DNA of 35,542 nucleotides from Candidatus Hermodarchaeota archaeon (GTDB lineage Archaea > Asgardarchaeota > Thorarchaeia > Thorarchaeales > Thorarchaeaceae): assembly GCA_048885865.1 (NCBI GenBank), contig JBHLLF010000026.1, positions 1-35,542 on the forward strand. Reading direction: 5' to 3'. The notes beneath the pieces were generated by a model, which worked only from the letters and a program-made list of their open reading frames with translations, did no database searches and had not been told where the DNA came from. A program made the translations under genes and the position numbers. This document shows positions 270 through 33,089 of this stretch, piece after piece. Numbering within the stretch: position 1 is the stretch's first letter; each line of letters begins with the position of its first letter.

Positions 270-3200
270 TTACCTGCGCCGTGCCATTACCAGAACTAGG
301 ACAAGCATTGCCACCATTGCTCCAACCATAATGTATAGCGGAGATATACCACCAGGCGGTAGAGGTGGTGGAGGTGTGGTGGAAGGTGGCGAAGTAGTCG
401 TTGTGCCATTGCCCTGCGTTGACAGGAATGCGCTAGAGTAAGACACGAACACTGGATCAACGATAAGGTCATGTCCTCCCCAGTTCTCATAGCCTGCTGT
501 CATGAAGAGCATTGAAGCCTGGATATTCCAGTTCGTGACACTCATACCTGAATCAGACTCAAACATCACACTGAACGCACCCAGAGGGGCTGTGGATGAA
601 CCAGAGTAATAGGTAGTCGAATAGCCATCCCCACCCCAAAGGTATGGAAGGCCACCCATTGAGACATTGGCAAAGGGGCTATCCTCAGAGCCAAACCGGT
701 AGTAGTCGGCACCTTGACTGTCCTGGTTCGTGTCAGTGACAGGTCTCTCACCAGCGGTGTAGCGGGTTGCAGTGCCAGTGGCCAGAATTCCAAAATAATT
801 CACGGCCAGGCTACGTCCAGCCAAGACACTATTCCCAAAGTCATGGAGTGTCCAGTTCCCAATTGTCTGGTCGATTTTGAACGAAACAGCGTGGTTCCAC
901 GTTTGCGGATCTTCTGCGTCATATTCGACCATATCAACACTGAATGTGACATCGAATGACATCACATCGATGGTTGCGGGAGTTATCCAGTAGTCAAAGC
1001 TGGTCCTATTTAGTCCAATTGCTCCGTCATATGACTCTCGAAAGGCCCATGGGCCTCGCAGCGAGTCCGAGTGCTCAACGCGAAGCGGATAAATTGTCAC
1101 ATCAACATCGCGAATGGTCACGCCAAAATCAATTACCGTGTCTGCCGTGACCCTGATATCGCCAGAGTCATCAATAGAACCAAACGGACGTCTCAGTTCA
1201 ATGCTTCCGATGTCATCTATTAAGACGACATGAGTCACCTCGTCTGTCTTCAATTGCCCGTTCTCAAATGAGAAGTCGGGAGCCGCAGGAGTGGGACCAA
1301 GTCCATCATTGAAGATGAGCAATCCAGCATACTCTGCTTGGAAGTGTGCTAGAGTCTTTTGGTTTTCAGTGATGCTGACCCAGAAGTTCTGAGTTGTACC
1401 CCAAGCAAACCAAGTTGTCTTCCAATGATTTTGTTCAAGTCCGGTGATGCTGCTAAGGTCCACGGTTCTGTTCAATGTCATCCAAGCTACGTAGAGGTAT
1501 CCAGGTTTCGCCTGTGTCATTGAATTGTCTGCCCATACGGTGTCCTGGATGTCAGCCATTTCAGCGGCATTCACAGGCGTCCAGTCATCTGCGTGGTACC
1601 AGTAGAAGGTTTCATTTGCTTCATACCAGAGATTCAGCTGAACAACGCCCATCCAGTTCTCTGACCAGAACTCATCGCCCATTCTACCAGGAGATGGATC
1701 GAAGCCAACACCGACCCACATGCCATCGATGCTCCAGTTGCCCCATTCTTTCCAATAAGCAGTCCTCTTGACGAAATACTGGTCATTGGTGGTGTAGACA
1801 TTCCCATCAATATCGATGGCGCCATCCTCAGTTATGGTCCAAATCTCAGGTTTGTAGACTGGAATGTCACCCAATATCAAGTGACGTGGACTCCAGAAAA
1901 CATCGGCTGAGATATCGACCTGATTATACACATCTGTCCAAGAATTGACGAGGTTGATGTATTGAGCTAAAGTGAGCTCGCCTCCAACCATCCACCATGG
2001 GTAGCCCCATGTACCATTGATGGCATCCCAGATTCTTAGATTGTCAATCACGCCAACCTGTACGCGAGCACTATCGATTATCATGTCGGGGGCTCCAATA
2101 GGCCATTCACCAGCAGCAAAACTGAATTGAACCTTCAGTGTAGTCAAAGATTCTCCAATCTCGATATCATAGCCACTGACAGCGACATGATCGGCTGGGA
2201 TAGGTATAGACCAGAGAAGGCCACCGCCACGCAGAAACATGTTCACCGTGTAGGTTGATTCTGTCGACACAAGGCCGGTCTTGAAGTCGATCTGCATGCT
2301 GTGGACTATATCTACTCTCCAATAATGGGTATCATTCCCATCCATTCCAGTTCCCATGACGTCGATAGTAAGGTCTGACAATTCGCGTGTCAAGTTGAAG
2401 TCTGCCGCTGGTTCACCTTGTTGAAAGATGAAGGAACCATTAATTTCTTCTTTGGGGGCATGGACAATCATGGTGAGGTTCAAGTTGTCACCTTGTTGTG
2501 CAACATCTGCAATTTGACCGGAATCATTGAACACAAATGCCTCAATGAAACCTTTCTGAAACGCTAGTTTCATAGTCTGTTTGTCTTTGACATCGGGTCT
2601 AGCTGTGATTGGCCGACCATTGATGTCAAGAACCATTGAAAGGCTGAGTTCAGGCTCAATTGTGCCTCCTTTGAAGAGGCCTTGATCAAGATCAACTAGG
2701 TCAGTGAAGTATCCACTCCACTGAAGTCTATGGCCACCATCATAAACGCCCATGTATGTGGAATTGGTCACGAAATAGTCTGCCAGGGAGATAGTGGAGT
2801 TCTCGACGCAGTTCAGTAGGGGGAACCATAGACCGACACCACCGCCCAGGTCTACCCAAGTCCAGTTGACATCAAGATACCCTGCGAGGGCATAGATATC
2901 CGTCGAGTTGTACTTGAGGAACATGAACGGATAGAGTTCTACTTCCTGCTTTACCCATGTGACATCCTTGTTAAAGAGCACACTGTCGCTGTCTTGAAGA
3001 CCCTCAGGGAAAGTCCAGTTTGCAGTTATCTTCAAGCTCTCATTGAAGGTGAGTTGAGTGAAGGGAATAAAGACCTCTCCGAACTGCGCAGGTGACATCA
3101 TTCTAATTGTAAATGTATCACCCACATCTACGAAATGTGTAACGGCACCTTGAGGATTGATGATGTCAGCATAGTAGTAGTTAGGAAGTTGGAAGTCTCT

Positions 3201-3881
3201 AGGATCTACAGGCGTGCCGAGGCCTATCGGAGGTGTGATAAATCCGCCACCTTCCAACGCAGATATCCAAGATGGTGAGGCAGGGCGGTTCATTGTATCA
3301 ATGGTCTGCATTCCAGTCCACATGATTGCTGGAACTATCATCAGCTCGTAGGTGATGGCAAAGACCACTCGATAGTGGTCAGTTTCTTCGGAGTACTCAC
3401 AGGAGAGTGAGTCAAGTGTGATGAAGTCTGCAGCTACTGGCTCCTCCGCTACACCTATGTACCGGAAAGCCATGCTGTTCCATCTATCAGAAGTCACATT
3501 GTATTCCAGGCCGAAGTATGGGGCTCGAGGACCTTCCTTTACACCCCAGAACTGGACAGCTTCCAATTCATTTCCTTCTCCTAGGAAGATTTTCGGGACA
3601 GTGATATTGATCAGCAGATCTGTCCCTAAATTAACCAGATAGCTATTATCAGCTATATGCGTGAGGTTGTCAGCGTAACCAACCCAGACTTTGGGTTGCG
3701 GGCCAAATATCCATTCTGAGTGTTCCGCAGAGTTGTCAAATTGCCTTACGTCATCTGCAACCTGCCATGCGACTCGAATAAATGGATCCGTGGGTGTCTG
3801 AGCAGCTACGAAGCCTGCTGTTGCAACAACACTCACAGCGAATACTGAAATAATAGCAAGTGTTGAAATTCGCTTTTTCAT
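270..3881 (-). CDS. Large secreted, C-terminally membrane-anchored cell-surface (S-layer-like) glycoprotein, about 1203 aa
   Basis: Start moved to ATG 3881, which is preceded by GGAAAGGTGA (SD). Signal peptide MKKRISTLAIISVFAVSVVATAGFVAA; acidic, beta-rich body with many NxS/T sequons; Thr/Pro linker (TTTTSPPSTTPPPPLPP), TM helix and RRR tail. Confidence 0.8.
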   Translation of the reverse strand: MKKRISTLAIISVFAVSVVATAGFVAAQTPTDPFIRVAWQVADDVRQFDNSAEHSEWIFGPQPKVWVGYADNLTHIADNSYLVNLGTDLLINITVPKIFLGEGNELEAVQFWGVKEGPRAPYFGLEYNVTSDRWNSMAFRYIGVAEEPVAADFITLDSLSCEYSEETDHYRVVFAITYELMIVPAIMWTGMQTIDTMNRPASPSWISALEGGGFITPPIGLGTPVDPRDFQLPNYYYADIINPQGAVTHFVDVGDTFTIRMMSPAQFGEVFIPFTQLTFNESLKITANWTFPEGLQDSDSVLFNKDVTWVKQEVELYPFMFLKYNSTDIYALAGYLDVNWTWVDLGGGVGLWFPLLNCVENSTISLADYFVTNSTYMGVYDGGHRLQWSGYFTDLVDLDQGLFKGGTIEPELSLSMVLDINGRPITARPDVKDKQTMKLAFQKGFIEAFVFNDSGQIADVAQQGDNLNLTMIVHAPKEEINGSFIFQQGEPAADFNLTRELSDLTIDVMGTGMDGNDTHYWRVDIVHSMQIDFKTGLVSTESTYTVNMFLRGGGLLWSIPIPADHVAVSGYDIEIGESLTTLKVQFSFAAGEWPIGAPDMIIDSARVQVGVIDNLRIWDAINGTWGYPWWMVGGELTLAQYINLVNSWTDVYNQVDISADVFWSPRHLILGDIPVYKPEIWTITEDGAIDIDGNVYTTNDQYFVKRTAYWKEWGNWSIDGMWVGVGFDPSPGRMGDEFWSENWMGVVQLNLWYEANETFYWYHADDWTPVNAAEMADIQDTVWADNSMTQAKPGYLYVAWMTLNRTVDLSSITGLEQNHWKTTWFAWGTTQNFWVSITENQKTLAHFQAEYAGLLIFNDGLGPTPAAPDFSFENGQLKTDEVTHVVLIDDIGSIELRRPFGSIDDSGDIRVTADTVIDFGVTIRDVDVTIYPLRVEHSDSLRGPWAFRESYDGAIGLNRTSFDYWITPATIDVMSFDVTFSVDMVEYDAEDPQTWNHAVSFKIDQTIGNWTLHDFGNSVLAGRSLAVNYFGILATGTATRYTAGERPVTDTNQDSQGADYYRFGSEDSPFANVSMGGLPYLWGGDGYSTTYYSGSSTAPLGAFSVMFESDSGMSVTNWNIQASMLFMTAGYENWGGHDLIVDPVFVSYSSAFLSTQGNGTTTTSPPSTTPPPPLPPGGISPLYIMVGAMVAMLVLVLVMARRR

Positions 3882-4071
3882 TATATTCACCTTTCCAAGA
3901 TCCACCGATTCCATCTCTTGTGACAAGCGGAAGATTCTGATGGCTTGTCATCTCGTCTTGGAAAAGAGATTGTAGGTGGTTTTCTCGTATATGGCGCATT
4001 CATAGAGGTACAATCCTATTGTCCTCTGATGGAAAAAATCGACAAACTGCATTACATCATCCCTCTTAGAG

Positions 4072-7280: not shown

Positions 7281-8555
7281 ATGCCAGACATTTCTAGTGA
7301 CATCTCGGCTAATGCCGAATCATTAGGAATCAACCAAGTCAGCTCGGACTTTCTTGGACTGAGTAAAAGTCTCTGGCGTCTAGCAATCGTGGTCGGTATC
7401 GCACAGTTTTCCGTTAGCATTTGGAATTGGGAGTTTAGCATCTTTCTCGAAAGATTTCTTGAACCCTGGCAAATGGGCTTGACCTTTTCAACAAGTACAC
7501 TGGCAAGTTTGATTGGTTATTTTCTATCTGGCACAATCGCTGATCGCATAGGTCGCCGCAAAACCATGATGTTAGCATTTTTGCCAGCGATATTTGGAGT
7601 CCTTTCACTGGCGAATTATCCTGTGTGGCCACTCATACCGCTAGAGTATGCTTCTTTCATGTTTGGGTGGAGCTTCATATTAATAATGAGTAGAGCAATA
7701 CCAGCCGATGAGATTGAGAGGACTGGGGGACATAATGCTGCGCGAAGATTTACAATGGTTCTTCTGCCTGCCTTTCTCGTCGATGGCATCAGTCCCGCGA
7801 TTGGAGCTACTTTGCTGAATTTGGGTCTTGTTCCCAGAGACCTTCACATAATGGCAGGCATAGGAGCAATGATTGCCTGCATTGCCACCTATTTCCTCAT
7901 TCAGGAATCCTTAGCAGGAGAGATAATTGAGAGGACAAAGAAAGGTCCACTCATCTCCTTCAGACAATTAGGTTCAAACTTCTGGAAACTAACTATAGGC
8001 ATGTTCGCATTCATCTTCTTCTTCAATTCTGCTCTAGCATACTATGGGAATATCATTGTGAGCGAGTGGGGACTCGATGAAACAACTTTTGGATATGCAT
8101 GGAGCGGGTTCTCCATAGCCATGGTCTTACTTATGCATACTATTAGTGGCTATGTTGACAGAGGCTTGAGGAAGTCCCTATTCGTCGCGGTCCTAGGAAA
8201 TGGGATAATTATCGCAGTTTTCTCATTTGGAAGTGGAGCGTGGACTCTTTTCCTTCTCAATTTCATCTGGGCTGTTCCTGTAGTGATGTGGATAGGTGCT
8301 GAGAGAACCCTAGTCGTTCATGATGTCGATGAGGAGAATAAGGGGAGGGCACTTGGCACGTATCAATTCATCGCGAGTTCTACGAATCTTGTTGCAGCAC
8401 CATTTGGCGCCTATATCTGGACCGTTACCGGAAGCCTTAGGACTCTCTGGATGATCTCAGGCATTGGTGGCATCTTTGCAGCTATGCTTCTTGGTGCAGC
8501 CTTGAAGTCTATGACGTCAGAGAGAAAGGCGAACATTATCGCTGACTCGGAATAG
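7281..8555 (+). CDS. MFS transporter (paralog 1)
   Basis: About 12 TM segments; MFS motif A GTIADRIGRRKT; C-terminal-half KGRALGTY. Confidence 0.9.
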   Translation: MPDISSDISANAESLGINQVSSDFLGLSKSLWRLAIVVGIAQFSVSIWNWEFSIFLERFLEPWQMGLTFSTSTLASLIGYFLSGTIADRIGRRKTMMLAFLPAIFGVLSLANYPVWPLIPLEYASFMFGWSFILIMSRAIPADEIERTGGHNAARRFTMVLLPAFLVDGISPAIGATLLNLGLVPRDLHIMAGIGAMIACIATYFLIQESLAGEIIERTKKGPLISFRQLGSNFWKLTIGMFAFIFFFNSALAYYGNIIVSEWGLDETTFGYAWSGFSIAMVLLMHTISGYVDRGLRKSLFVAVLGNGIIIAVFSFGSGAWTLFLLNFIWAVPVVMWIGAERTLVVHDVDEENKGRALGTYQFIASSTNLVAAPFGAYIWTVTGSLRTLWMISGIGGIFAAMLLGAALKSMTSERKANIIADSE

Positions 8556-8620: not shown

Positions 8621-10537
8621 ATGGCAGAAGAAGGCTCACGAATTTCACGCAGGCTGAAGAGAACAGGTGAGCTTCTTCTGGGTGGAGCCAAACAACAGGT
8701 TACAGGCTATAAGAGTCGATTTGATAGTCTCAATGGAATCTATGATGAATTTCTCTCTGGATTTATCAATCAATATCCAGAGGGAAAAGCAGACCCATCA
8801 TTTGTGGACCGATTCTTTGGTAAGAGAGAACTATCCTTTGCAGGCATTGATGGTACAATATGCAAGTATGATGTCTTTGACCTCATCATCTTCTTCGCAG
8901 GAGCCTACTCTTCACATGGAATAGCCCGAGTTGATGACTCAGGGAATATTGAGCTTGAATATGAGGAACAGTTCCTCGAAAGAGGCATTGGTCTGTCGAG
9001 TGTTCTTCCTATCTATATCAACGAAGTGCCACTTGTAGACCAGACAATTCTTGCAAGGGCTGAAGATGGAAGCGTGGATCATACGGTAGCATACACTGAT
9101 TCTTGGATAATCGACAATTCTGCATTTGCAGATTACATGATGACATTATCCGAATTCTATCTCGCCTACCGACTAGTCAGCGGGGAGAATCCTGTCGATA
9201 TCCTTCTGATGGACAGGGTCTGCTCTTCTGAGATCTCGTCTTCCTATGCAGAAACTTCTGATTTCAGAATCGATATTGAGAAAGAATGTGGCCTTGTTGG
9301 ACAGGATGTGAATGGCCGACCCTTTAGTGCCACAGAATGGATTCAGGCGAGAAGGCTCCTTGGCAATCTGCGGCTTGGCACTCCTCCAGCCAGAGGCGAA
9401 TACCTGCTACCTAGAATCATGGCAGAGCTGAGCTCTGAAAGCTCCGGATTAACAAGAGAGGAGATCTCCGCACGACTGGGCATTGATTCGGAACCAAGAC
9501 GCGAACGACTTGACAAGGAGCTAGAATCAGCAATACGCGGAAAGGGGGCGTCCAAAGGAATTGTTGTACGAAAGGGTAAGCACTTCAGTCTTCGACCTGA
9601 ATACCGCGACCTCAGAAAGCGACTAGAGACTTTAGTTGTCGAAACTTGTGAACGCTTGTTCTCTGAGGATCCAACAGTCACATATGATGAGAGGTTCAAG
9701 GTGGATAAACGATGGCTGACAACAAATGATCTATCATTCCTTGCTTTGGCTTCCCTTTATCTTACTATCGAGAGATCCTGGCAGAATAAGACACTGCTAA
9801 TTGGAGTTGCCAAGGATACCTCTGCAAGGGACTTCAAAAGGCAAGTGATGCCAGTCCTGAATCATCTCGGCATATGTGACAAAGGATTCTTTGGAGAACA
9901 AGGAGACACCCCTGATACAGACAGGATGATCTTGCAGTGGGTTTCTCTTCAGGAGAGAGAGCGGTTGAAGACGCCATGGGCCACCATTGAGTATGATACA
10001 GCCTTCAAGACGATAGTGCCACACTTTGATAGAAAATCCGGACTGGTATCAGGAGCTAGAAGGAATCAAATCTCATTAGAGAAGACTTTCGTGAAGGCCT
10101 ATTTTCAGCTATGTGAAGCAAAGTCGAACCCGCGCTTGCGGAGCAATGTGCTCCTATATGATAGGCTGGTTCATCCCGAGTTTGACGATTCGGAATCCAC
10201 CTTGCTTGAGTTGAAACATGACTACGAGAGCAAGCCTGAATACCCTGAACCGATTGAAGCTGTGTTCTACTATGGTGCTGAGAATCCAATTCAATCATTC
10301 ACAATTGCACTGTTCAAAGCTATGACCAGTGCTAGCATTCCTGAGTTATTTGGTCATCTGAAGCCACTTTATGTTGCAGACAAGGTGGCCAAGTATAATT
10401 TCACTCACTTCAAGAACATGGTCGAGAGCGCTGGTAGTTGGCTCATTAATCGCCCTGAGTTGCGGGAGTTTCTATTCTATCTAACCACATTTCGAGAAAG
10501 GAGATCTGATGTTGAACAGTCACGAAGAGGTACCTAG
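8621..10537 (+). CDS. NurA-like (RNase H-fold) nuclease with internal winged-helix insertion
   Basis: FAGIDGT, ILLMDR, LIGVAKDTS and GHLKPLYVADKVAK resemble the NurA motifs (AxDGS, LLDG, GVxK, GYPxPLxxAH). Overlaps a HerA-like gene. Confidence 0.72.
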   Translation: MAEEGSRISRRLKRTGELLLGGAKQQVTGYKSRFDSLNGIYDEFLSGFINQYPEGKADPSFVDRFFGKRELSFAGIDGTICKYDVFDLIIFFAGAYSSHGIARVDDSGNIELEYEEQFLERGIGLSSVLPIYINEVPLVDQTILARAEDGSVDHTVAYTDSWIIDNSAFADYMMTLSEFYLAYRLVSGENPVDILLMDRVCSSEISSSYAETSDFRIDIEKECGLVGQDVNGRPFSATEWIQARRLLGNLRLGTPPARGEYLLPRIMAELSSESSGLTREEISARLGIDSEPRRERLDKELESAIRGKGASKGIVVRKGKHFSLRPEYRDLRKRLETLVVETCERLFSEDPTVTYDERFKVDKRWLTTNDLSFLALASLYLTIERSWQNKTLLIGVAKDTSARDFKRQVMPVLNHLGICDKGFFGEQGDTPDTDRMILQWVSLQERERLKTPWATIEYDTAFKTIVPHFDRKSGLVSGARRNQISLEKTFVKAYFQLCEAKSNPRLRSNVLLYDRLVHPEFDDSESTLLELKHDYESKPEYPEPIEAVFYYGAENPIQSFTIALFKAMTSASIPELFGHLKPLYVADKVAKYNFTHFKNMVESAGSWLINRPELREFLFYLTTFRERRSDVEQSRRGT

Positions 10538-12383
10538 TCACTTATTCACCGATTTTGATGGAACATTTGATGGAAGACTTGCCAGAGTCATTCCTGTAGC
10601 TGCAAACTATACTTCTGAATGGGCGGGTTCAGCCGCAAGGTATGACTGCAGAATCAAGATTCGGTATAACAAGGAGCTAATGGCACAACTTGAGGAGGGC
10701 ATGATGATAGCTGTCCGCAACTTCAAGGGGCAAGCCAAGTCCGCCAAAAGGAAAGGAGTCCAGCGCTATACAGTGATGGTCATTAGCAAGGTATGGCCGC
10801 TTCACTATGGACTCGGTGGGATTAGTGACAGTCATTATTATCCAATGCAGATGGAGATGATAGAACAGGCAGTTCCAGACTGGGATACTGATGACCAGTC
10901 AACAATGATGGTTCATCTCACAGCAATTCCGATTAACTACGATCTCATTGTGCCAGAGAAGGGAGAGATAGAATTCAAGAAAGGATTCTCGTATCCACTT
11001 ATTGGGGACAGAGTACATGTAATAAATCTGGAAACGATAGACTTCATCTATAATGGTAAAGTAAGAGAGGCTCTAGGGCTGAAGAAGAAGGCGACATCTT
11101 CAGACCCCAAGAAAGACCCGAGGGTTGGAATTCTCAGGATGTTCATGGACTCTGGGAAGGAGGTCCCCGTGCTCATAGACCTCCACAAGCTTCTCAGATA
11201 CCACTTCGGGGTATTCTCATTCACTGGAGGTGGAAAGAGCAACCTTCTCTCAAATCTCTTCAGAAGAATCCTCTATCATACTAAAGATACCAAACTCGTC
11301 ATCTTCGATGTTAGTTGCGAATACCCATTCCTCCTATCGGATGTGTTTTCGGACCCCAAGATTCAGGCCAGGGTAATTGTTGAGGAGGAACCAAGAACAG
11401 CTGAAGACTTCGCTAGGTCGATCGTCAAACCACGTGACTTCGAGGACGACTCACGAGCAAACATGGCGCTAAAATCCCTTTACGATATGGGCATGGTTAC
11501 CTTCTATAATCTCCCTCAATCTCAGATGCCTACATATCGATCTGTACTAGATGACATCAACGATCTGCAAAATGATAACTCATCAAAGCCAACCTATGTC
11601 CAAGCACTTGACCAAGTTAAGGCGGCTGTAACAGGGTGGATGGATGCTTGGGATAAGTCAGAAGGAGACCCTCTTGATGACAAGTTCGTTGAGATGCTGC
11701 AGAATGAAGCTGTCACAGCTGTAGAGGATTTCTCAGTATATTCCAAGTCTGGCGTTGCTGCATGGGCTTCGACCAGAGGGAAATTGAAAGATGCTATTGC
11801 AAGGTCGCGAAGCGGCAAGAAGAAAGGTGTAACCATCAAGGACATGCTGAAAATGATGAGTGGTCCTGAGCGAGTCATCTGCATATCGATTGCAGACCCA
11901 GACATTCTCAGAGAGATTGTGATTCGTATAACAGCTTCTGCTTTGAAGTATAGGAAGAGAAGCTTCGAGATAAAGCCACAGATACTATTTGTATTCGATG
12001 AGGCTCAGGAGTTCATACCTTCGAATGCTACTGGGCAAGTAGCGCGATGCAGTAGTGCGATAGAAAGGCTATTACGCCAAGGGAGGAAATATGGGCTCGG
12101 GGGGGCGATTGCTACACAGAGAATCGCATATCTAAATACAAACATCATGCAGCAACTGCATACCTTCTTTGTGGGAACACTGCCGAGACCATATGATCGC
12201 ACAGTCGTTAGCAGTTCATTCCAAATCGACCTTAGTATTCTTGACAAGACCCTCGAATTCCCTCCAGGATCATGGCTTCTATCAAGCTATATAGCAATGG
12301 GCATAGACAATGTGCCGGTGTTCGTAAGAGCTGATGACTCTGAGGATGCATTGCGGGACCATATTTCAGCCATAACTGATTAG
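10509..12383 (+). CDS. HerA/FtsK-superfamily ATPase (HerA-like DNA translocase)
   Basis: N-terminal HAS-barrel-like region; Walker A HFGVFSFTGGGKS; Walker B FVFDEAQEF; RQGRKYG arginine motif; ATQR motif. Confidence 0.9.
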   Translation: MLNSHEEVPSHLFTDFDGTFDGRLARVIPVAANYTSEWAGSAARYDCRIKIRYNKELMAQLEEGMMIAVRNFKGQAKSAKRKGVQRYTVMVISKVWPLHYGLGGISDSHYYPMQMEMIEQAVPDWDTDDQSTMMVHLTAIPINYDLIVPEKGEIEFKKGFSYPLIGDRVHVINLETIDFIYNGKVREALGLKKKATSSDPKKDPRVGILRMFMDSGKEVPVLIDLHKLLRYHFGVFSFTGGGKSNLLSNLFRRILYHTKDTKLVIFDVSCEYPFLLSDVFSDPKIQARVIVEEEPRTAEDFARSIVKPRDFEDDSRANMALKSLYDMGMVTFYNLPQSQMPTYRSVLDDINDLQNDNSSKPTYVQALDQVKAAVTGWMDAWDKSEGDPLDDKFVEMLQNEAVTAVEDFSVYSKSGVAAWASTRGKLKDAIARSRSGKKKGVTIKDMLKMMSGPERVICISIADPDILREIVIRITASALKYRKRSFEIKPQILFVFDEAQEFIPSNATGQVARCSSAIERLLRQGRKYGLGGAIATQRIAYLNTNIMQQLHTFFVGTLPRPYDRTVVSSSFQIDLSILDKTLEFPPGSWLLSSYIAMGIDNVPVFVRADDSEDALRDHISAITD

Positions 12384-12460: not shown

Positions 12461-13723
12461 ATGGCTGATGGACCTGAATTCACTGGATTTGGTGACAAAG
12501 GTCTAGAAAAGGATAAGTCACGAGAGATTCTTGGGCTTGGGGCCGATCTATGGCGAGTTGCTATTCTACTTGGACTAGCACAATTTTCCGTAGGCATTTG
12601 GAATTGGCAGTTCAGTGTCCATCTAGATACATTCCTTGAGCCTTGGCAAATTGGTCTCACCTACTCATCTCGGCCCGTCGCTATGCTTCTTGGAGGATAC
12701 CTCTCGGGTATGATGGCTGACTTCTTTGGAAGAAGAAAGACCATGGCATTTAGTCTTGTACCAATATCTTTTGGCCTACTTACCCTGTCCTTCTTTCCTG
12801 TCTGGCCAACAATCCCCATTCAGTTCGGTCTAGTGATGTTTGGGCTCAGTTCAGTCAGGCTTATGCAAAGGGCTATACCTGCAGATGTGGTTGAAGCCGA
12901 AAGGAGCCAAGATCCCGCACGCAAGTTCATGATGATTATGGTGCCCCTATGGGCTATTGATGGAATTAGTCCATTAATTGGAGCTTTTCTATTGAACATT
13001 GGACTATTACCTACGCATCTCTATCTGATTGCAGCCATTGGGGGGGTACTTGCCTGTATTGCCGTATTGATCGGCATCAAGGAGTCTTTGGGCGATGAAA
13101 TCATTGAGAAAGCGAAGCAAGGTCCCAGAGTCCCCATTCGAAGCCTTGGACGTAATTTCTGGATGTTTGCCGGGGGCATGTTGACGTATTTCTTCTTCTA
13201 TAGTTCAGCAATTTCATATTTGGGAGTACTCTGCGTTGATTTCTGGGGAGTTGACCTCACAGTATACGGAATCTCATGGAGTGTCTTCTCGTTTACCGGA
13301 GCAATTATCATGTACACGATGAGCGGTCTAGCAGATAGAAACCTGAAAGCCGCCCTCACTGCCGCAGTCTTTGGTAATGGGCTTACGTTTGTTGGATTTG
13401 GACTTGGCTCAGGTGAATTATGGCTCATCGTTCTCAACATAATCTGGGCATTCCCCTTCATGCTATGGCTTGGCGGTGTAAGGAGCATTGTAGCGAGTAC
13501 TGTTTCTGAAGAACTAAAGGGTCGTGCCTTCGGAACGTATGACATGGTCTTGGGTTTGACCGCTATGTTTGCAGCATCTTTTGGAGCGCTTCTATGGCAG
13601 ATTTCTGGGAGTCTGAGATTAGTTTGGATTCTTGCAGGTATCGGGATGATTCTTGTTACATTTGTGATTGCGTTCGTTCTACAACGAATTGATATCCATC
13701 GCAATCAATTGTCTGAGAATTAG
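12461..13723 (+). CDS. MFS transporter (paralog 2)
   Basis: About 12 TM segments; motif A GMMADFFGRRKT; collinear with 7281..8555 (AQFSVxIWNWxFS, FLEPWQxGLT, RAIPAD, DGISPxIGA, SGSLR). Confidence 0.9.
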   Translation: MADGPEFTGFGDKGLEKDKSREILGLGADLWRVAILLGLAQFSVGIWNWQFSVHLDTFLEPWQIGLTYSSRPVAMLLGGYLSGMMADFFGRRKTMAFSLVPISFGLLTLSFFPVWPTIPIQFGLVMFGLSSVRLMQRAIPADVVEAERSQDPARKFMMIMVPLWAIDGISPLIGAFLLNIGLLPTHLYLIAAIGGVLACIAVLIGIKESLGDEIIEKAKQGPRVPIRSLGRNFWMFAGGMLTYFFFYSSAISYLGVLCVDFWGVDLTVYGISWSVFSFTGAIIMYTMSGLADRNLKAALTAAVFGNGLTFVGFGLGSGELWLIVLNIIWAFPFMLWLGGVRSIVASTVSEELKGRAFGTYDMVLGLTAMFAASFGALLWQISGSLRLVWILAGIGMILVTFVIAFVLQRIDIHRNQLSEN

Positions 13724-16169: not shown

Positions 16170-17921
16170 CTATCTCCTTCGAGTCCTTAAGTACAAGGAC
16201 AATACTACGATTGTTGATAGACCGCCAAGAATCACAACAGCTATAGAAACTGCCAATGGCAGACCTGGGTGTATCAAGGGAGTGATTTCGTATTGCAGCC
16301 ATCCAGTATTGTAGACATTCCGCGCAGATGAGTTATCCACCGCTATGACCCTGTAGTGAACCACAATTCCATAACTGAATTGACCTAGATGGGCAGAGTA
16401 GAAATCATTTGCCTCATATATCATCTCTACGACTTCTGTTTGGGTTTCATCTCCAGTATGCCATTCAACTGTGATATTCCGAATTCGATTTAGGTCCCAC
16501 ACATAGGCTTGGATGGTGAGGTTATTTGCCCAGCTAGTTGAATAGGACTGAATAGCCTGAATCTCACTGATAAGAGGTTGGTGTGCATCGGGCGTAACAG
16601 TGAGAGTCACAACTGCAAAGGACGTCTGATTGAAGAAGTCATACAGAGTCAGGTTATAGACATATACGCCCACTTCAAAGCCATCTATTGAGATTGAGAT
16701 GTTCTCTCCTCTCCAAGTTCCGTTCAATAGGACTTGCCCATTCCTTGTTAGATTATAGGAACGAGGATTCGTTTCTTCTGCTGACCAATTTAAGGAATAT
16801 CCAGTGTATCCTTCTTCATACTCAAATTCGTTAATCGAGTCTATTATTGGGGCTCTGAGATCTTCGTAGACTGTGACATTGACTGTGTTGTTGACTGACC
16901 TATCAAAAACATCGAAGAGAAGTATCTGGAATGTATAATTACCAAGGAACAAATTGTCCAGATCATAGATAATCGGTCCTCCCTTTGGCTCCGTGAAGGT
17001 CCAGTTGGATGTAGATACATTCGTCGGGGCATGTAGTGGTTTGGTGAGATTTCCATAGAGCGTGTTATTGAAACGAATCCATACGGATATCGAATAGTTC
17101 TTCGGATTGCTATCGAAAGCCTCCCATCGTATCTCTTGGTCAACTGACCCAAACTCGAACTTGATTTCTCCGGGATCAGTAACTGTTGGAGCAGTTAGGT
17201 CCACGACAACCGTCACATTGACTGAGCTGGTGGAGTTGTATCCCAAAGTATCATTGACAAATAGGGTGTAGATATACCAGCGTGATGCATTGAGTCCATC
17301 AACATTGATGGTAATATTGTCTCCATCCCATTCATCACTTAATACTACTGTGTCGTTGCTGGTGGGCTCATTCGATTTCCTTGTGATGTTAAAGAAATCA
17401 GGGTTGGATTCAGTAATGTTCCATCTTATCTCGTGTCCAAAGCTACCTTCTTCATATGTTATGTTCTCAGGCTGTGCAATGATGGGCGCAGCCTCATCAG
17501 GAATAACATGGACTATCACGATATCCCAAACTGACTCGCCATCCTCGTTGAAAACTGTGCAATTAAATACGAAATCAGATGGCACTTCACTCGGTTCATC
17601 AAGAAGGTCTTCAACATACAAGTGGTTCAGAAAGACTGTGATATCACCACCAGTCCAAACTGTTTCTCGGTAGACATCACCATCTCTAGTGACGCTGTAA
17701 TTCTTGGGATTTGGCGCTTCCGGCGACCAAACAATAAGTTCATTCAACGAGCCGTTTTCAAAGGTGATATCGGGTGGGCTGTCAATGGATATTGAAGCAA
17801 CAAAATAGGTCTGAGATCTTGATACAGTCTCACTAACTAGGGTTCCGCCAATAGCAGGCTGAAGCACAAGCCAAGTTAGAACCAGCGCGACAATTATTCC
17901 TTGCTTATGTTTGGATACCAT
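16170..17921 (-). CDS. Secreted, membrane-anchored surface protein with tandem Ig-like repeats
   Basis: Signal peptide; four repeats of about 95-110 aa (P.I..P..I.YE.G...I.W...E.NP..Y.ITR.....W.G..I.I..DGL..G.Y.Y.L...D); a fifth beta domain; C-terminal TM and RTRRR. Confidence 0.82.
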   Translation of the reverse strand: MVSKHKQGIIVALVLTWLVLQPAIGGTLVSETVSRSQTYFVASISIDSPPDITFENGSLNELIVWSPEAPNPKNYSVTRDGDVYRETVWTGGDITVFLNHLYVEDLLDEPSEVPSDFVFNCTVFNEDGESVWDIVIVHVIPDEAAPIIAQPENITYEEGSFGHEIRWNITESNPDFFNITRKSNEPTSNDTVVLSDEWDGDNITINVDGLNASRWYIYTLFVNDTLGYNSTSSVNVTVVVDLTAPTVTDPGEIKFEFGSVDQEIRWEAFDSNPKNYSISVWIRFNNTLYGNLTKPLHAPTNVSTSNWTFTEPKGGPIIYDLDNLFLGNYTFQILLFDVFDRSVNNTVNVTVYEDLRAPIIDSINEFEYEEGYTGYSLNWSAEETNPRSYNLTRNGQVLLNGTWRGENISISIDGFEVGVYVYNLTLYDFFNQTSFAVVTLTVTPDAHQPLISEIQAIQSYSTSWANNLTIQAYVWDLNRIRNITVEWHTGDETQTEVVEMIYEANDFYSAHLGQFSYGIVVHYRVIAVDNSSARNVYNTGWLQYEITPLIHPGLPLAVSIAVVILGGLSTIVVLSLYLRTRRR

Positions 17922-26374: not shown

Positions 26375-28519
26375 ATGATGCAGGCGTTCTCAGACCCAAC
26401 TTTGAATATGCTTTTCATGATTTTGATAGTGGGAGGTTCATTTGTCTGTTGCATGAGTCGTCAGCGACGCGGAAGGAGCAGTGCTCCTGCTACGCCTGAA
26501 TCAGCTCCTGCAGCTGATGATGCAATAGCCAAAATGGAAAGGGAGAAACCTCCAATACCTACTCGGATCATTGATGATCCGGGCGCATTACAGACGATAA
26601 TCACACAGAGAACACCTGAAGGAGAAGCAATCGAGCCTGTTGGTCGAATTAGTGGATTTGGCGCATTGCTGGGCATGCTAGCCGCAGCAATAGCCATGAT
26701 TATGACTACAGGATATTCCCTTTTGCCAATTCCAACAATTCCCATTGAAGCTTTCCAAACTGACGCGTATCAGCTTGGGTCGACTTTGTTTGTGGGATTA
26801 CTTGTAGCTAGCTTATTGCTGCAGGCATATGGCTCCCGCAAACTTAGACTGAGGCTTGCGTCCAACTTTCCATACCTACTCTATATCTGTGCAATTACTG
26901 GATTATTGATTATTCTCAGTTTACGCACAGGTGCCCTTGACGCGGGATCGTATGAGTCACGACAAATCAGTTTCATGAACGGATTCGCCCCTCAATTTGC
27001 GATATTTGCAGTATTGTGGCAGCTTATCTCAGTCATGTATACGGATACTAGCAAGACATGGTTTGGCTTTCTTGCCGGATTAATGAATGCCTTCTTTATT
27101 CCTCTGCTTGCACTGGGTCAGGTAGTGGGCGGAGGATTAGTCTATATAGCCTACGCCATCCTACTAATCGGTCAACTAAGTACATTCCTATATTGGTGGT
27201 CGCCATTGGGCAGCATACGGGAATTTGCGAGGTCTCCAAGCAAAGCGAAACTCGCCTTTGGTATGAGCGGTTTCTTGACATTCCTAATAGGAACCGCCGC
27301 CGTGTTCATGGGGCCTTTGACCAACATTGGGACTGTGAATATTTGGAGGCCATGGAGTACCCTTGACCCTGCACAGAACTATATGTTTGTCACAAATCCT
27401 GCGCTTGTATTTGCGCTTTGCTCAGCAATGATATACTGGGTCATGCTAGCACCACGTCTAGGGGCAAAAGAGCTACAATTGGCGCACATTGGAGAGGATA
27501 TTGTCAAGGGTGCAGTCAAGTGGCTTATGATGATACTTGCAGCTCTTGGTGTCGTGGCAGCGGCTGGTGCTGGAGTAATGGTAGCTGGTGCAGAAGGCTT
27601 TGGACTCTGGCTATCAGTAGCACCCGCGGCAGTCATCTTCCTTATGGGAGCACTCTATGCTGCCACAACCGACGTTATCACAGGAATCCCACTTGCGATC
27701 ACATCTATCCTCCTAATGGTTCATCCATTCATACTTTCAGATTTCATTATAATCGGATGGATTGCGATTATCATCACACAAGGCCTAATCATGATTGAAA
27801 CAATTATACGGGGATTCACGAGCTTCTCACAAGGAGCACTGTCTGTTATACTGAGTATCGTAGCATCCATACTGTTTACGATGTTCATGCTTGGAGCTTT
27901 TGGTGCGGGCCCCGCTGCGATTTGGCCAACTAATCAATGGTTCAATATTCGGCTCTTTCCGGGAATCCCTGAAGCAATCCAATCTCCATTAGTTGTGGTG
28001 CTCCCAGCACTTGCACTTCTCATGCGCAATGTGTCACTTGCGGGCTATTCACATGGAAGGGGTTATACGGGTGGGCAAATGTTGATGGGCGTAAGTGTAC
28101 TCTTCGCACTTGTAATTCCGTTGATTGCGTTCAACGAGGGTATTGCTCATGTGGCGAGTACTGCTGCAGCGGTCTTGCTTGCCCTCTATGGAGTCAGTTT
28201 CGTGTTGGTGCTTTCCCTTAACATGAACCTCGCGGCTGAGGTGGAAGACACGGGACACACCTTTGAAGGTCAATTCATCAGGGTGTCGACTGTGATAGGA
28301 CTTGTATTCGGCGCAATTGTAGCTATTATAGTAATGTCAGTATTTACTGCGGCGTTTATCTCTGCTCTTGAGCTTGCATTCGCCATTAGGCTCCTTGTAA
28401 CATTAGTTGTAGGATTAGAGATTCTCTGTATCATCTCATGGCTAGTTGCAGGTGTAAGGCTAGGTATGTTGAGTGAGGGGTTCAGTTTCACAAGAGTCGA
28501 ACATTCGCTTAGAGATTGA
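26375..28519 (+). CDS. Large polytopic membrane protein of unknown function
   Basis: 714 aa; SD GTGAGG; roughly 18-20 hydrophobic segments; no family recognised. Confidence 0.75.
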   Translation: MMQAFSDPTLNMLFMILIVGGSFVCCMSRQRRGRSSAPATPESAPAADDAIAKMEREKPPIPTRIIDDPGALQTIITQRTPEGEAIEPVGRISGFGALLGMLAAAIAMIMTTGYSLLPIPTIPIEAFQTDAYQLGSTLFVGLLVASLLLQAYGSRKLRLRLASNFPYLLYICAITGLLIILSLRTGALDAGSYESRQISFMNGFAPQFAIFAVLWQLISVMYTDTSKTWFGFLAGLMNAFFIPLLALGQVVGGGLVYIAYAILLIGQLSTFLYWWSPLGSIREFARSPSKAKLAFGMSGFLTFLIGTAAVFMGPLTNIGTVNIWRPWSTLDPAQNYMFVTNPALVFALCSAMIYWVMLAPRLGAKELQLAHIGEDIVKGAVKWLMMILAALGVVAAAGAGVMVAGAEGFGLWLSVAPAAVIFLMGALYAATTDVITGIPLAITSILLMVHPFILSDFIIIGWIAIIITQGLIMIETIIRGFTSFSQGALSVILSIVASILFTMFMLGAFGAGPAAIWPTNQWFNIRLFPGIPEAIQSPLVVVLPALALLMRNVSLAGYSHGRGYTGGQMLMGVSVLFALVIPLIAFNEGIAHVASTAAAVLLALYGVSFVLVLSLNMNLAAEVEDTGHTFEGQFIRVSTVIGLVFGAIVAIIVMSVFTAAFISALELAFAIRLLVTLVVGLEILCIISWLVAGVRLGMLSEGFSFTRVEHSLRD

Positions 28520-31499: not shown

Positions 31500-33089
31500 T
31501 CAAATCATGATTGGATCGAATGAATCTATGGCAATAAACACAGCTCGGAATGCATAGACCCTGAATGTGTAAGTGACTCCAACCTGTGAGATTTCCTCAG
31601 TAGATGTCATTAGATTCTCTAAGGCGTTCGTGCCAAATGCCGCAAGTAGATGAGGAAGTGATTCAAAAGTCAAGGAGTTTACTCCATTTCCTTCAGCAAT
31701 AATCAAGTCTGAAGCTATGCTCTCTAGGGAGTTGTACACTTCGTTTCGTCTTGATTTAGTGTCAGACATATTACCAGCGACACCAAGCCGCATTGACCAA
31801 GCTGGCCCATATTGCGAAACCGTCCTAGAAAATGAGTGAGTCAGATATTCTCCAACATCGCCATTCATCTCGTATGAGAATCCTGATCGAGAACAGTCGA
31901 CTTGAACCTTATCCCATTGAGTGAGTGTCTGTACAGTCTGGCCACAAACCTTCATTGCTACAGTATCCGCGTCCTGCAAGTCATCAAGAATGAAAGATTC
32001 AACCAATACACCGGTGCTCAAGTCCAATGAATCAGATTCGCTTGCAAGGAGGGCGGCGCTCGTTTCCAATGCACTCGAATCGATTGAATCAATTGAGGAC
32101 CGAATGAGAGCTGAGAATCCAGGTAAATCAAGAGTCCTGGTTCGTGCCAAAAGAATCTGCCACTCTGGCGCTGACAAGGTCATATCGAAGTAGATGCAGT
32201 CGGGCATTTGGGTCATGTTGAGTGTTTCCAACTCAGAATCGACCTGTTGCAGTGAATTGAGGTGGCTTTGATATACTTCCTGAATCACAGATGTTGTGCC
32301 AAGAGAGTTTGGAACGCCATCAAAGAATGAAGCCCTGGGGGAAGTCATTGTCACAGTATACTGCACTGCCGAATCATTGAGCACGTTTAGCCAGTTTCTC
32401 AAACGATTCATTGATTCCGTATTGCCCTCTAGCAAGTGAAGATCCACTCCAACACCAAAAGAACTAAGATTCTGAACGAGAGAATCACTAGGCGATATAT
32501 CCATGTACCCAAAATCAAAATCAGCTAGAGGGACTTCAAGTTTTAGATTCATCTCGCCTACGGGTTCTATCAATGCAATAGGTGTTTGACCCAGTGCAAG
32601 CGTCGTTATGGGAAAACTCAATCCTATTATGTTGAGGATAATCATTGAGACGCAAGTCTTCCTTCCGATTTGCCGAATCTTGGTTTTAATACGAAAGCGG
32701 CCCATCACGAAGATGATGCACAAGGTTGCAGCATTCAGAATTAGGAAGATTACGAAACCATGAACCAGAAGCGAAAGCACTCCAAAGAATCCGGATGCAA
32801 TAAGCAGGATGATGAAATTAATGGCCGCAAATCTATCGCTATAATATGCTCTTACCATAAGTGGCAAAATAACCATTAGCGGTAGTATATAGAGAACAAT
32901 CGGCAAAGAGTCAAGGAATCCGATACCAGCCATGGTCATGCGAATCGTCACTGATAGCATAGTATAGAGAATCAAAGAGATATTGAGGACTAGAACTCCC
33001 GTCGCATAGAGATGCAGCCAAAAATCCAGCTTCTCATTCGATTTGATATTTGCTCTTAATGCCCTTCGTCTACTAATGAATCCGCTCAT
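31500..33089 (-). CDS. Membrane protein with about 5 N-terminal TMs and a large soluble domain
   Basis: The first ~165 aa are hydrophobic, followed by an acidic alpha/beta domain; SD GAGG upstream. Confidence 0.72.
   Translation of the reverse strand: MSGFISRRRALRANIKSNEKLDFWLHLYATGVLVLNISLILYTMLSVTIRMTMAGIGFLDSLPIVLYILPLMVILPLMVRAYYSDRFAAINFIILLIASGFFGVLSLLVHGFVIFLILNAATLCIIFVMGRFRIKTKIRQIGRKTCVSMIILNIIGLSFPITTLALGQTPIALIEPVGEMNLKLEVPLADFDFGYMDISPSDSLVQNLSSFGVGVDLHLLEGNTESMNRLRNWLNVLNDSAVQYTVTMTSPRASFFDGVPNSLGTTSVIQEVYQSHLNSLQQVDSELETLNMTQMPDCIYFDMTLSAPEWQILLARTRTLDLPGFSALIRSSIDSIDSSALETSAALLASESDSLDLSTGVLVESFILDDLQDADTVAMKVCGQTVQTLTQWDKVQVDCSRSGFSYEMNGDVGEYLTHSFSRTVSQYGPAWSMRLGVAGNMSDTKSRRNEVYNSLESIASDLIIAEGNGVNSLTFESLPHLLAAFGTNALENLMTSTEEISQVGVTYTFRVYAFRAVFIAIDSFDPIMI

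Follow-up and report, generated by a model that had tools for sequence, protein, structure and literature searches.

A long NurA-HerA-type gene pair at a conserved chromosomal site in Thorarchaeia, separate from the canonical repair genes of the same genome

Organization of the gene pair

The stretch of DNA analyzed here (hereafter the window) comprises 35,542 nucleotides (nt) of contig JBHLLF010000026.1 (assembly GCA_048885865.1) and belongs to G000, a Thorarchaeota metagenome-assembled genome of 3.58 Mb that is 87% complete. Two genes on its forward strand are the subject of this work: nurA-L, encoding a long NurA-type nuclease (8621–10537; 638 amino acids (aa), P0001), and herA-L, encoding a HerA-type ATPase/translocase (10509–12383; 624 aa, P0002). 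The original prediction had reported a 638-aa NurA-like open reading frame (ORF) overlapping a 624-aa HerA ORF by 29 nt, and both are present as described. Direct reading of the coupling region (10500–10537, forward strand) places a GGAG at 10500–10503, followed after 5 nt by the ATG of HerA-L at 10509, within the last 29 nt of nurA-L. This overlap, with a GGAG ahead of the HerA-L start codon, fits translational coupling of the two genes, and most related loci show a similar overlap of 25–45 nt.

The same prediction had stated that mre11 and rad50 are missing from the window. A domain scan of 29 window ORFs agrees, as none of them contains a Metallophos/Mre11 or SMC/Rad50 domain. The deviations from the usual motifs that had been listed for the two proteins, together with the retained catalytic and ATPase residues, are likewise all present.

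NurA-L has a NurA fold with an altered active site and a winged-helix insert

NurA-L cannot be named by sequence alone, because the Pfam NurA family (PF09376) matches it below threshold (14.2 bits against a gathering cut-off of 21, E 0.03; 10.8 bits in the scan of its own genome) and sequence searches of NCBIfam, the PADLOC models, and PDB sequences returned no match. The AlphaFold (AF2) model of the protein has a predicted local distance difference test score (pLDDT) of 87 and a predicted template modeling score (pTM) of 0.88. Using this model in Foldseek, we found that the best 10 matches are all NurA chains, with E-values from 2e-9 to 3e-6. Comparison by VIA aligned 311 of 319 residues with the Sulfolobus solfataricus NurA 2ygk_B at Z 20.8, and the runners-up were TdpB (Z 11.8) and the Thermococcus kodakarensis NurA (Z 11.7). 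On the strength of the predicted structure, we firmly assign NurA-L to the NurA RNase H-like fold. The NurA family is characterized by a toroidal dimer and by Mn-dependent 5'–3' exo- and endonuclease activity. Much of the original prediction had depended on the ORF at 8621 having such a fold, and the match to 2ygk_B at Z 20.8 places it there.

A recent review defines three NurA motifs, namely motif I, (I/V)(V/A)x(V/I)DG, motif II, (I/V)(L/V)(L/M)DG, and motif III, LxxAHxxx(A/V)(R/H/K), which carries the catalytic His (2026; PMC13748450). A family profile built from 62 NurA-L members could be aligned to the Pyrococcus furiosus NurA 3tai at three places. The first is motif I (FAGIDGT), in which D77 (codon at 8849–8851, forward strand) is invariant in the 62 members and falls on the Asp of AVDGS in 3tai; the following G78 is kept in at least 90% of the family. 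The second reaches from E178 in the SEFYLAY helix to D198 in motif II, ILLMDR (9152–9214, forward strand), and falls on YLAY...ILMDG of 3tai. Both residues are invariant, and the Gly that follows the motif II Asp is replaced by Arg (R199, invariant within Thorarchaeia). E178 probably represents the glutamate of the NurA motif set. The third place is motif III (LYVADKVAK), where PLxxADK aligns on PLQLAHH of 3tai. D587 (codon at 10379–10381, forward strand), which is kept in at least 90% of the family, falls on the first His of LAHH and thus takes the place of the catalytic His.

A further motif, GVAKDTS, aligns on GIVKDS of the canonical NurA of G000, and its K398–D399 (9812–9817, forward strand) are invariant. 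Family-wide, the invariant residues of NurA-L are D77, E178, D198, K398, D399, D434, D459, and R515. Since the acidic residues are conserved and the motif III His is exchanged for Asp, we read the active site as probably intact but altered, of a DEDD type formed by D77, E178, D198, and D587. A fourth acidic residue at position 587 would suit a DEDD site of the RNase H-like kind.

Between motif II and the KD motif, the NurA core of NurA-L is interrupted by a winged helix (approximately residues 256–332; 9386–9616, forward strand), which was found by both VIA and the family profile. In VIA, about 60 residues of this insert superpose on MarR, SmtB, Z-alpha, Rpa2, and Hel308 at Z 8–9 and a root-mean-square deviation of 1.3–2.3 Å, and at the same position the family profile matches MarR/Lrp helix-turn-helix chains. 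The insert sequence varies across the family, and the length of the whole protein is near constant.

HerA-L retains the residues of a HerA ATPase

HerA-L is recognizable from its sequence. Pfam DUF87 (PF01935) matches it at 4.8e-14 (53.4 bits against a cut-off of 23.2), and so do several PADLOC HerA models and HerA chains in the PDB sequence search. Its AF2 model (pLDDT 85) matches the T. kodakarensis HerA at a Foldseek E-value of 8e-21 and the S. solfataricus (Sso) HerA at 1e-20. Conservation was judged on 15 partner HerAs from several phyla, among which three elements are invariant: the Walker A GGGKS (G240–S244 with K243, in FSFTGGGKS; 11226–11240), the Walker B D497–E498 (in FVFDEAQ; 11997–12002), and G525–R526–K527 (in RQGRKYG; 12081–12089), all on the forward strand. 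From HerA structures, the last of these is a putative arginine finger. The N-terminus gave no Pfam HAS-barrel match; the model shows a beta-rich domain at residues 22–172, which is partly of low confidence, and no membrane segment was seen in it.

HerA-L scores 45 and 39 bits with the NCBIfam repair HerA models NF040819 and NF040937 (cut-offs 970 and 800) and 46.3 and 49.5 bits with the anti-phage HerA models NF042943 and NF042944 (cut-offs 800 and 850), and the Foldseek search does not separate repair HerAs from defence HerAs. Taken with the NurA-L data, the fold and the invariant residues of HerA-L lead us to conclude that the pair very probably constitutes a working NurA-HerA-type machine, i.e., a HerA ring ATPase with a NurA nuclease.

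The canonical NurA-HerA and HerA-Mre11-Rad50 genes are encoded elsewhere in the genome

The original prediction had proposed a separate nuclease-translocase machine and suggested looking for canonical herA, nurA, mre11, and rad50 genes elsewhere. We found them on two other contigs of G000, so that the pair is not the only one. Contig C12 encodes a canonical NurA (385 aa, Pfam 5.9e-22) beside a HerA with a HAS-barrel (504 aa; L010:7708–10383), and contig C29 carries an operon for HerA (584 aa), Mre11 (463 aa), and Rad50 (692 aa) on the minus strand (L011:2878–9350). The HerA phylogeny, also suggested at the outset, sets HerA-L far apart: its clade and the two canonical HerAs are separated by branches of more than 6 substitutions per site. 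Similarly, hhalign of the NurA-L family profile against the canonical NurA of G000 recovered one short motif only. All three HerA systems coexist in 5 relatives of G000, and a separate Pfam-grade NurA also occurs in 3 carriers of NurA-L outside the Thorarchaeota (2 Bathyarchaeia and 1 Nitrososphaeraceae). Since the canonical NurA-HerA and HerA-Mre11-Rad50 genes lie on other contigs, the data support the view that nurA-L/herA-L encode a third HerA machine, paralogous to the canonical repair genes and separate from them.

The HerA-Mre11-Rad50 operon on C29 is preceded by a 435-aa gene that belongs to no Pfam family and has a weak LFLDG-type likeness to NurA motif II. Considered as a candidate for a further NurA, this gene gave only short motif matches in hhalign with the NurA-L profile.

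The closest characterized relative of the pair is the archaeal HerA-NurA end-resection complex, known from S. solfataricus (2YGK/4D2I), P. furiosus (3TAI), and T. kodakarensis (9X1L–9X1P). The two share the NurA fold (Z 20.8), the HerA fold (Foldseek 8e-21), adjacent and translationally coupled genes, the IDG of motif I, the Asp of motif II, the GxxKD motif, Walker A and B, and the GRK triplet. However, NurA-L is about twice as long as the end-resection NurA, carries the winged-helix insert, has DR in place of DG and AD in place of AH, and stays below the Pfam cut-off. HerA-L, for its part, reaches 45 bits where the NCBIfam model demands 970, and it coexists with the canonical genes. This combination bears on whether the long pair might simply be a redundant back-up that does the same job with Mre11-Rad50. 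The shared fold and types of catalytic and ATPase residues would suit such a role. It is made unlikely by the extreme divergence described above, by the winged-helix insert, the extra and constant length, and the invariant residues kept across phyla, by the persistence of two other HerA systems alongside, and by gene order, since the long pair was never beside mre11 or rad50 in the loci examined.

The pair is widespread in Thorarchaeia and Bathyarchaeia and is kept together

About 155 close homologues of NurA-L were found, nearly all of them in Thorarchaeota, with 52–92% identity and a length of about 639 aa. Clustering at 50% gave 279 representatives, whose full-length members are 21–40% identical. 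The wider set of hosts includes other Asgard archaea, Bathyarchaeia, Culexarchaeia, Thermoplasmataceae, Nitrososphaerota, and Thermoprotei, and nearly all of these proteins are annotated as hypothetical. Relatives of HerA-L occur in 419 species-level genomes. Restricting the count to genomes that are at least 85% complete, we found NurA-L in 57 of 268 Asgard genomes, among them 37 of the 57 other members of the window's own family, and in 124 of the 301 Bathyarchaeia genomes sampled (about 40%). It occupies a single locus per genome, which now and then is split into pieces.

To describe the operon, we took the best 80 HerA-L loci, 74 of which had assessable upstream sequence. NurA-L accompanies HerA-L in 72 of these 74 loci and is encoded immediately upstream in 70, usually with an overlap; two loci (L076 and L081) lack it. 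In two Bathyarchaeia loci (L116:3736–8526 and L117:3023–8881), one to three small genes separate nurA-L from herA-L. All 13 Asgard loci examined contain both genes.

The family tree of NurA-L falls into three clades. Clade B, which includes the NurA-L of the window, unites Thorarchaeia, other Asgard lineages, Bathyarchaeia, and Nitrososphaeraceae. Clade A consists of Culexarchaeia, Thermoprotei, and others, and the three sampled loci that have DNA-modification genes nearby all fall in clade C.

A few loci depart from the common arrangement. One of the small genes interposed in the L116/L117 group encodes a 162-aa winged-helix (HTH_24) protein. At some Bathyarchaeia loci, small ORFs precede nurA-L; a scan of these for winged helices yielded one clear HTH_24, in L117. 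At a Culexarchaeia locus (L027:4671–10905), herA-L and nurA-L point away from each other instead of lying in tandem, and behind each lies a radical-SAM gene of about 355 aa. In G545 (C10:20833–22656), the sequence matching NurA-L is part of a 1256-aa open frame interrupted by a single TAA, which may reflect read-through, a nurA-L/herA-L fusion, or an assembly error.

Fixed genomic position and probable vertical inheritance

In several Thorarchaeia genera, the pair occupies the same site: GDE (minus strand), an MFS gene (plus strand), NurA-L, HerA-L, ribA/GTP cyclohydrolase II (minus strand), FrhB, and an NTPase, followed by a 583-aa gene, a TackOD1 protein, and MTD. In many Bathyarchaeia, the pair instead adjoins a four-gene pyruvate:ferredoxin oxidoreductase operon. 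Clade B thus sits at fixed syntenic sites by core metabolism in two phyla.

The pair also diverges at the rate of its housekeeping paralogues. Compared with the relatives G046, G010, G003, G005, and G001, the NurA-L of G000 is 67, 63, 60, 54, and 33% identical and its HerA-L 70, 69, 67, 61, and 48%. The corresponding values are 73, 66, 69, 59, and 35% for the canonical NurA, 75, 73, 72, 70, and 53% for the canonical HerA, and 78, 75, 67, 57, and 45% for the HerA encoded on C29, so that the gradient over the five relatives is alike for all five proteins. In the HerA-L tree, the Thorarchaeia are monophyletic (support 100) and sister to a genome of the same order, and the Bathyarchaeia are nearly monophyletic (99). 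No relative was found among IMG/VR viral contigs or PLSDB plasmids. Finally, a scan of 125 immediate flanking proteins from 41 diverse loci returned mostly metabolic Pfam families; with PADLOC, the same proteins gave scattered single matches (one methylase, DpdJ, BrxH, SngC, and AbiEi/Eii) and mad2 twice.

In Thorarchaeia and Bathyarchaeia, the pair therefore behaves as a chromosomally fixed, vertically inherited, and dispensable module. The fixed position, the matching rate of divergence, the single copy per genome, and the absence from the mobile-element collections lead us to favour a role in DNA maintenance, i.e., a specialised processing of DNA ends or DNA structures rather than defence, and we hold this role to be about evenly balanced against all others taken together.

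Patchy distribution, clean loss, and links to defence and DNA modification

Several observations weigh against this assignment. The identity of HerA-L between Thorarchaeia and Bathyarchaeia, about 50%, is high for two phyla and may be explained by an old transfer. The neighbour scan was made without a matched background and is indicative only. When only genomes that are at least 85% complete are counted, the pair is missing from entire Thorarchaeia genera (g15, 0/3; g16, 0/4; g9, 0/4). In four Thorarchaeia genomes that are 95–99% complete, the site is empty: GDE, MFS, ribA, and FrhB are in place with no remnant of the pair (L123, at G053:C2:157000–163200, L124, L125, and L126), and the spacing between MFS and ribA is about 70–700 bp, with 67 bp at L123. 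Several carriers, e.g., G024, G061, G380, and G553, show in-frame stops or splits, some of which may be assembly errors. The pair is thus dispensable, and its patchy spread, clean loss, and occasional decay fit an accessory or defence gene as well.

A second group of such observations comes from the HerA partner. The model with the best match to HerA-L is PADLOC PDLC01055 ('HerA, Type III coevolved'), which scores 1.2e-44 and 151 bits, in a model that has no curated cut-off. PDLC01055 is also the top model for the partners encoded at a Culexarchaeia locus (L024) and in an unassigned metagenome (L025), with 120–152 bits for the three proteins. The match spans most or all of the model, and the canonical HerAs of G000 reach only 47–60 bits. 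The model derives from the HerA/NurA pairs that accompany cas genes in Thermoproteales and others (PMC3973734, PMC6546367).

The third group comes from the genes next to distant family members. Clade C is linked to genes for DpdA, DpdC-like/DUF6884 proteins, QueT, HNH, SIR2, and methylases. L120 (7001–14019) encodes NurA-L, HerA-L, HNH, two unknown proteins, and DpdA (PADLOC 5.8e-77); MazG and another TGT gene are close by. L121 (215–6298) encodes NurA-L, HerA-L, a DUF6884/DpdC-like protein, and QueT, and L122 (3475–12939) a SIR2-ORC/Cdc6-like protein, NurA-L, HerA-L, a YaaA/DUF6884 protein, and a Dam-like methylase. We read these three loci as a possible restriction arm of NurA-HerA type, not described before, that would serve 7-deazaguanine (Dpd-like) systems. 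In addition, P0221, an 897-aa long-NurA relative with about 300 extra N-terminal residues, which the family tree does not include, is followed by HerA and lies amid type I restriction-modification (HsdM, HsdS), OLD-like AAA_15/21, UvrD-PD-(D/E)xK, and ParE genes.

These data raise the possibility that the pair is an innate nuclease against viruses or plasmids, now a fixed part of the chromosome. By analogy with TdpAB and the CRISPR-associated HerA-NurA, HerA-L would load on foreign DNA ends and NurA-L would degrade the DNA, and the cell's own DNA might be protected by the winged-helix domain or by a modification or sensor whose gene lies elsewhere. The patchy presence, the clean loss, the affinity of HerA-L for PDLC01055 (Shah et al., 2018, PMC6546367), and the clade C contexts, together with TdpB as the second-best structural match of NurA-L, keep this explanation alive. 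On the other side stand the syntenic sites, the housekeeping-like divergence, the single copy, and the mostly metabolic neighbours. In the 87% of G000 that is covered, we found no match to RAMP (PF03787), DpdA, or DUF6884 (TdpC was not searched for), and tblastn of G000 with the clade C accessory proteins found nothing. Within the window, there are neither tandem or CRISPR repeats nor arrays, and its ORFs include no cas families. We therefore rank immunity below DNA processing and consider it doubtful for the window's pair.

HerA-L and its partners in other phyla score best, over their entire length, on the HerA model of the CRISPR type III-associated ('coevolved') pairs (Vestergaard, 2014; Shah et al., 2018, clusters 57/58), but unlike those pairs ours lacks cas genes and a CRISPR array within the window, its genome gave no RAMP match, and NurA-L matches no PADLOC model. 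TdpAB, in which HerA-like TdpA and NurA-like TdpB together carry out restriction in the tdpABC phosphorothioate system (PDB 8WET/8WFD), is likewise a two-gene HerA/NurA-type machine outside a repair operon. However, the TdpB match is far weaker than that of Sso NurA, no modification gene is adjacent to the window's pair, and the neighbours are MFS, GDE, ribA, and FrhB. With the SIR2-HerA and DUF4297-HerA anti-phage systems, the pair shares a HerA hexamer-type ATPase with one effector gene (Foldseek E 1e-17 to 1e-19). Here, in contrast, the effector is a NurA nuclease, and the NCBIfam HerA_antiphage models give 46–50 bits against cut-offs of 800–850.

The original prediction had called the pair a separate machine that is possibly antiviral. 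The first part holds. For clade B, to which the window belongs, the second is disfavoured by the metabolic fixed sites in two phyla, the divergence in step with the canonical paralogues, the lack of viral or plasmid copies in the collections searched, and neighbours that are not enriched in defence genes. A defence role keeps some likelihood because the distant clade C is linked to DpdA/DpdC-like modification genes. Extended to the whole long-NurA/HerA family, this would make it an archaeal nuclease-motor immune effector, with clade C as the restriction arm of Dpd-like or other modification systems and clade B as a chromosomally fixed form that tells self from foreign DNA by the winged helix or an unlinked mark. 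We regard this broader proposal as somewhat less likely than immunity of the window's pair.

Proposed mode of action and significance

The two genes probably encode a single DNA translocase-nuclease machine of the HerA-NurA type, which would be driven by ATP and work apart from the end-resection genes. HerA-L, with its beta-rich N-terminal barrel and RecA-like core (K243, D497/E498, and R526), is expected to form a ring that pumps duplex DNA. NurA-L would sit on this ring and cut the strands with its putative DEDD-type RNase H-like site (D77, E178, D198, and D587), and the winged-helix insert may bind a partner protein or the DNA as it is fed in.

The minimal machine for end resection in archaea is HerA-NurA, and many Asgard archaea and Bathyarchaeia, as well as some other archaea, possess a second, structurally elaborated version of it. 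Asgard NurA homologues are described as uncharacterized and often with extended termini (2026; PMC13748450), and we found no description of the long-NurA/HerA family in the literature searched. The DEDD site, the winged-helix insert, and the constant architecture make NurA-L a clear target for biochemistry and cryo-electron microscopy. Furthermore, a core-like clade beside a modification-linked clade provides a test case for how repair machines and immune nucleases exchange roles.

Flanking MFS genes and further ORFs of the window

The pair is flanked by two co-oriented MFS genes. The upstream one (7281–8555) ends 65 nt before nurA-L and is syntenic in most Thorarchaeia loci. The downstream one (12461–13723) follows herA-L after 77 nt and is a paralogue of the first. 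In archaea, HerA-like ATPases take part in DNA import by the Ced system, and HerA-L weakly matches the NCBIfam CedD model (33 bits). The four genes could on this basis be read as one cassette for the uptake or export of DNA or nucleotides. We rejected this idea, which we consider highly improbable, since the empty-site loci keep the MFS gene without nurA-L/herA-L; the upstream MFS gene thus belongs to the site and not to a cassette. The downstream gene is confined to the window's genus, and other Thorarchaeia pass directly from herA-L to ribA. No MFS gene adjoins the pair in Bathyarchaeia or at other Asgard loci, and the HerA-L model is free of membrane segments.

Four other ORFs of the window match no Pfam family at E ≤ 1e-4, namely 270–3926 (minus strand, 1218 aa), 16170–17921 (minus strand, 583 aa), 26375–28519 (plus strand, 714 aa), and 31500–33089 (minus strand, 529 aa). 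The 583-aa ORF at 16170–17921 is syntenic across Thorarchaeia loci.

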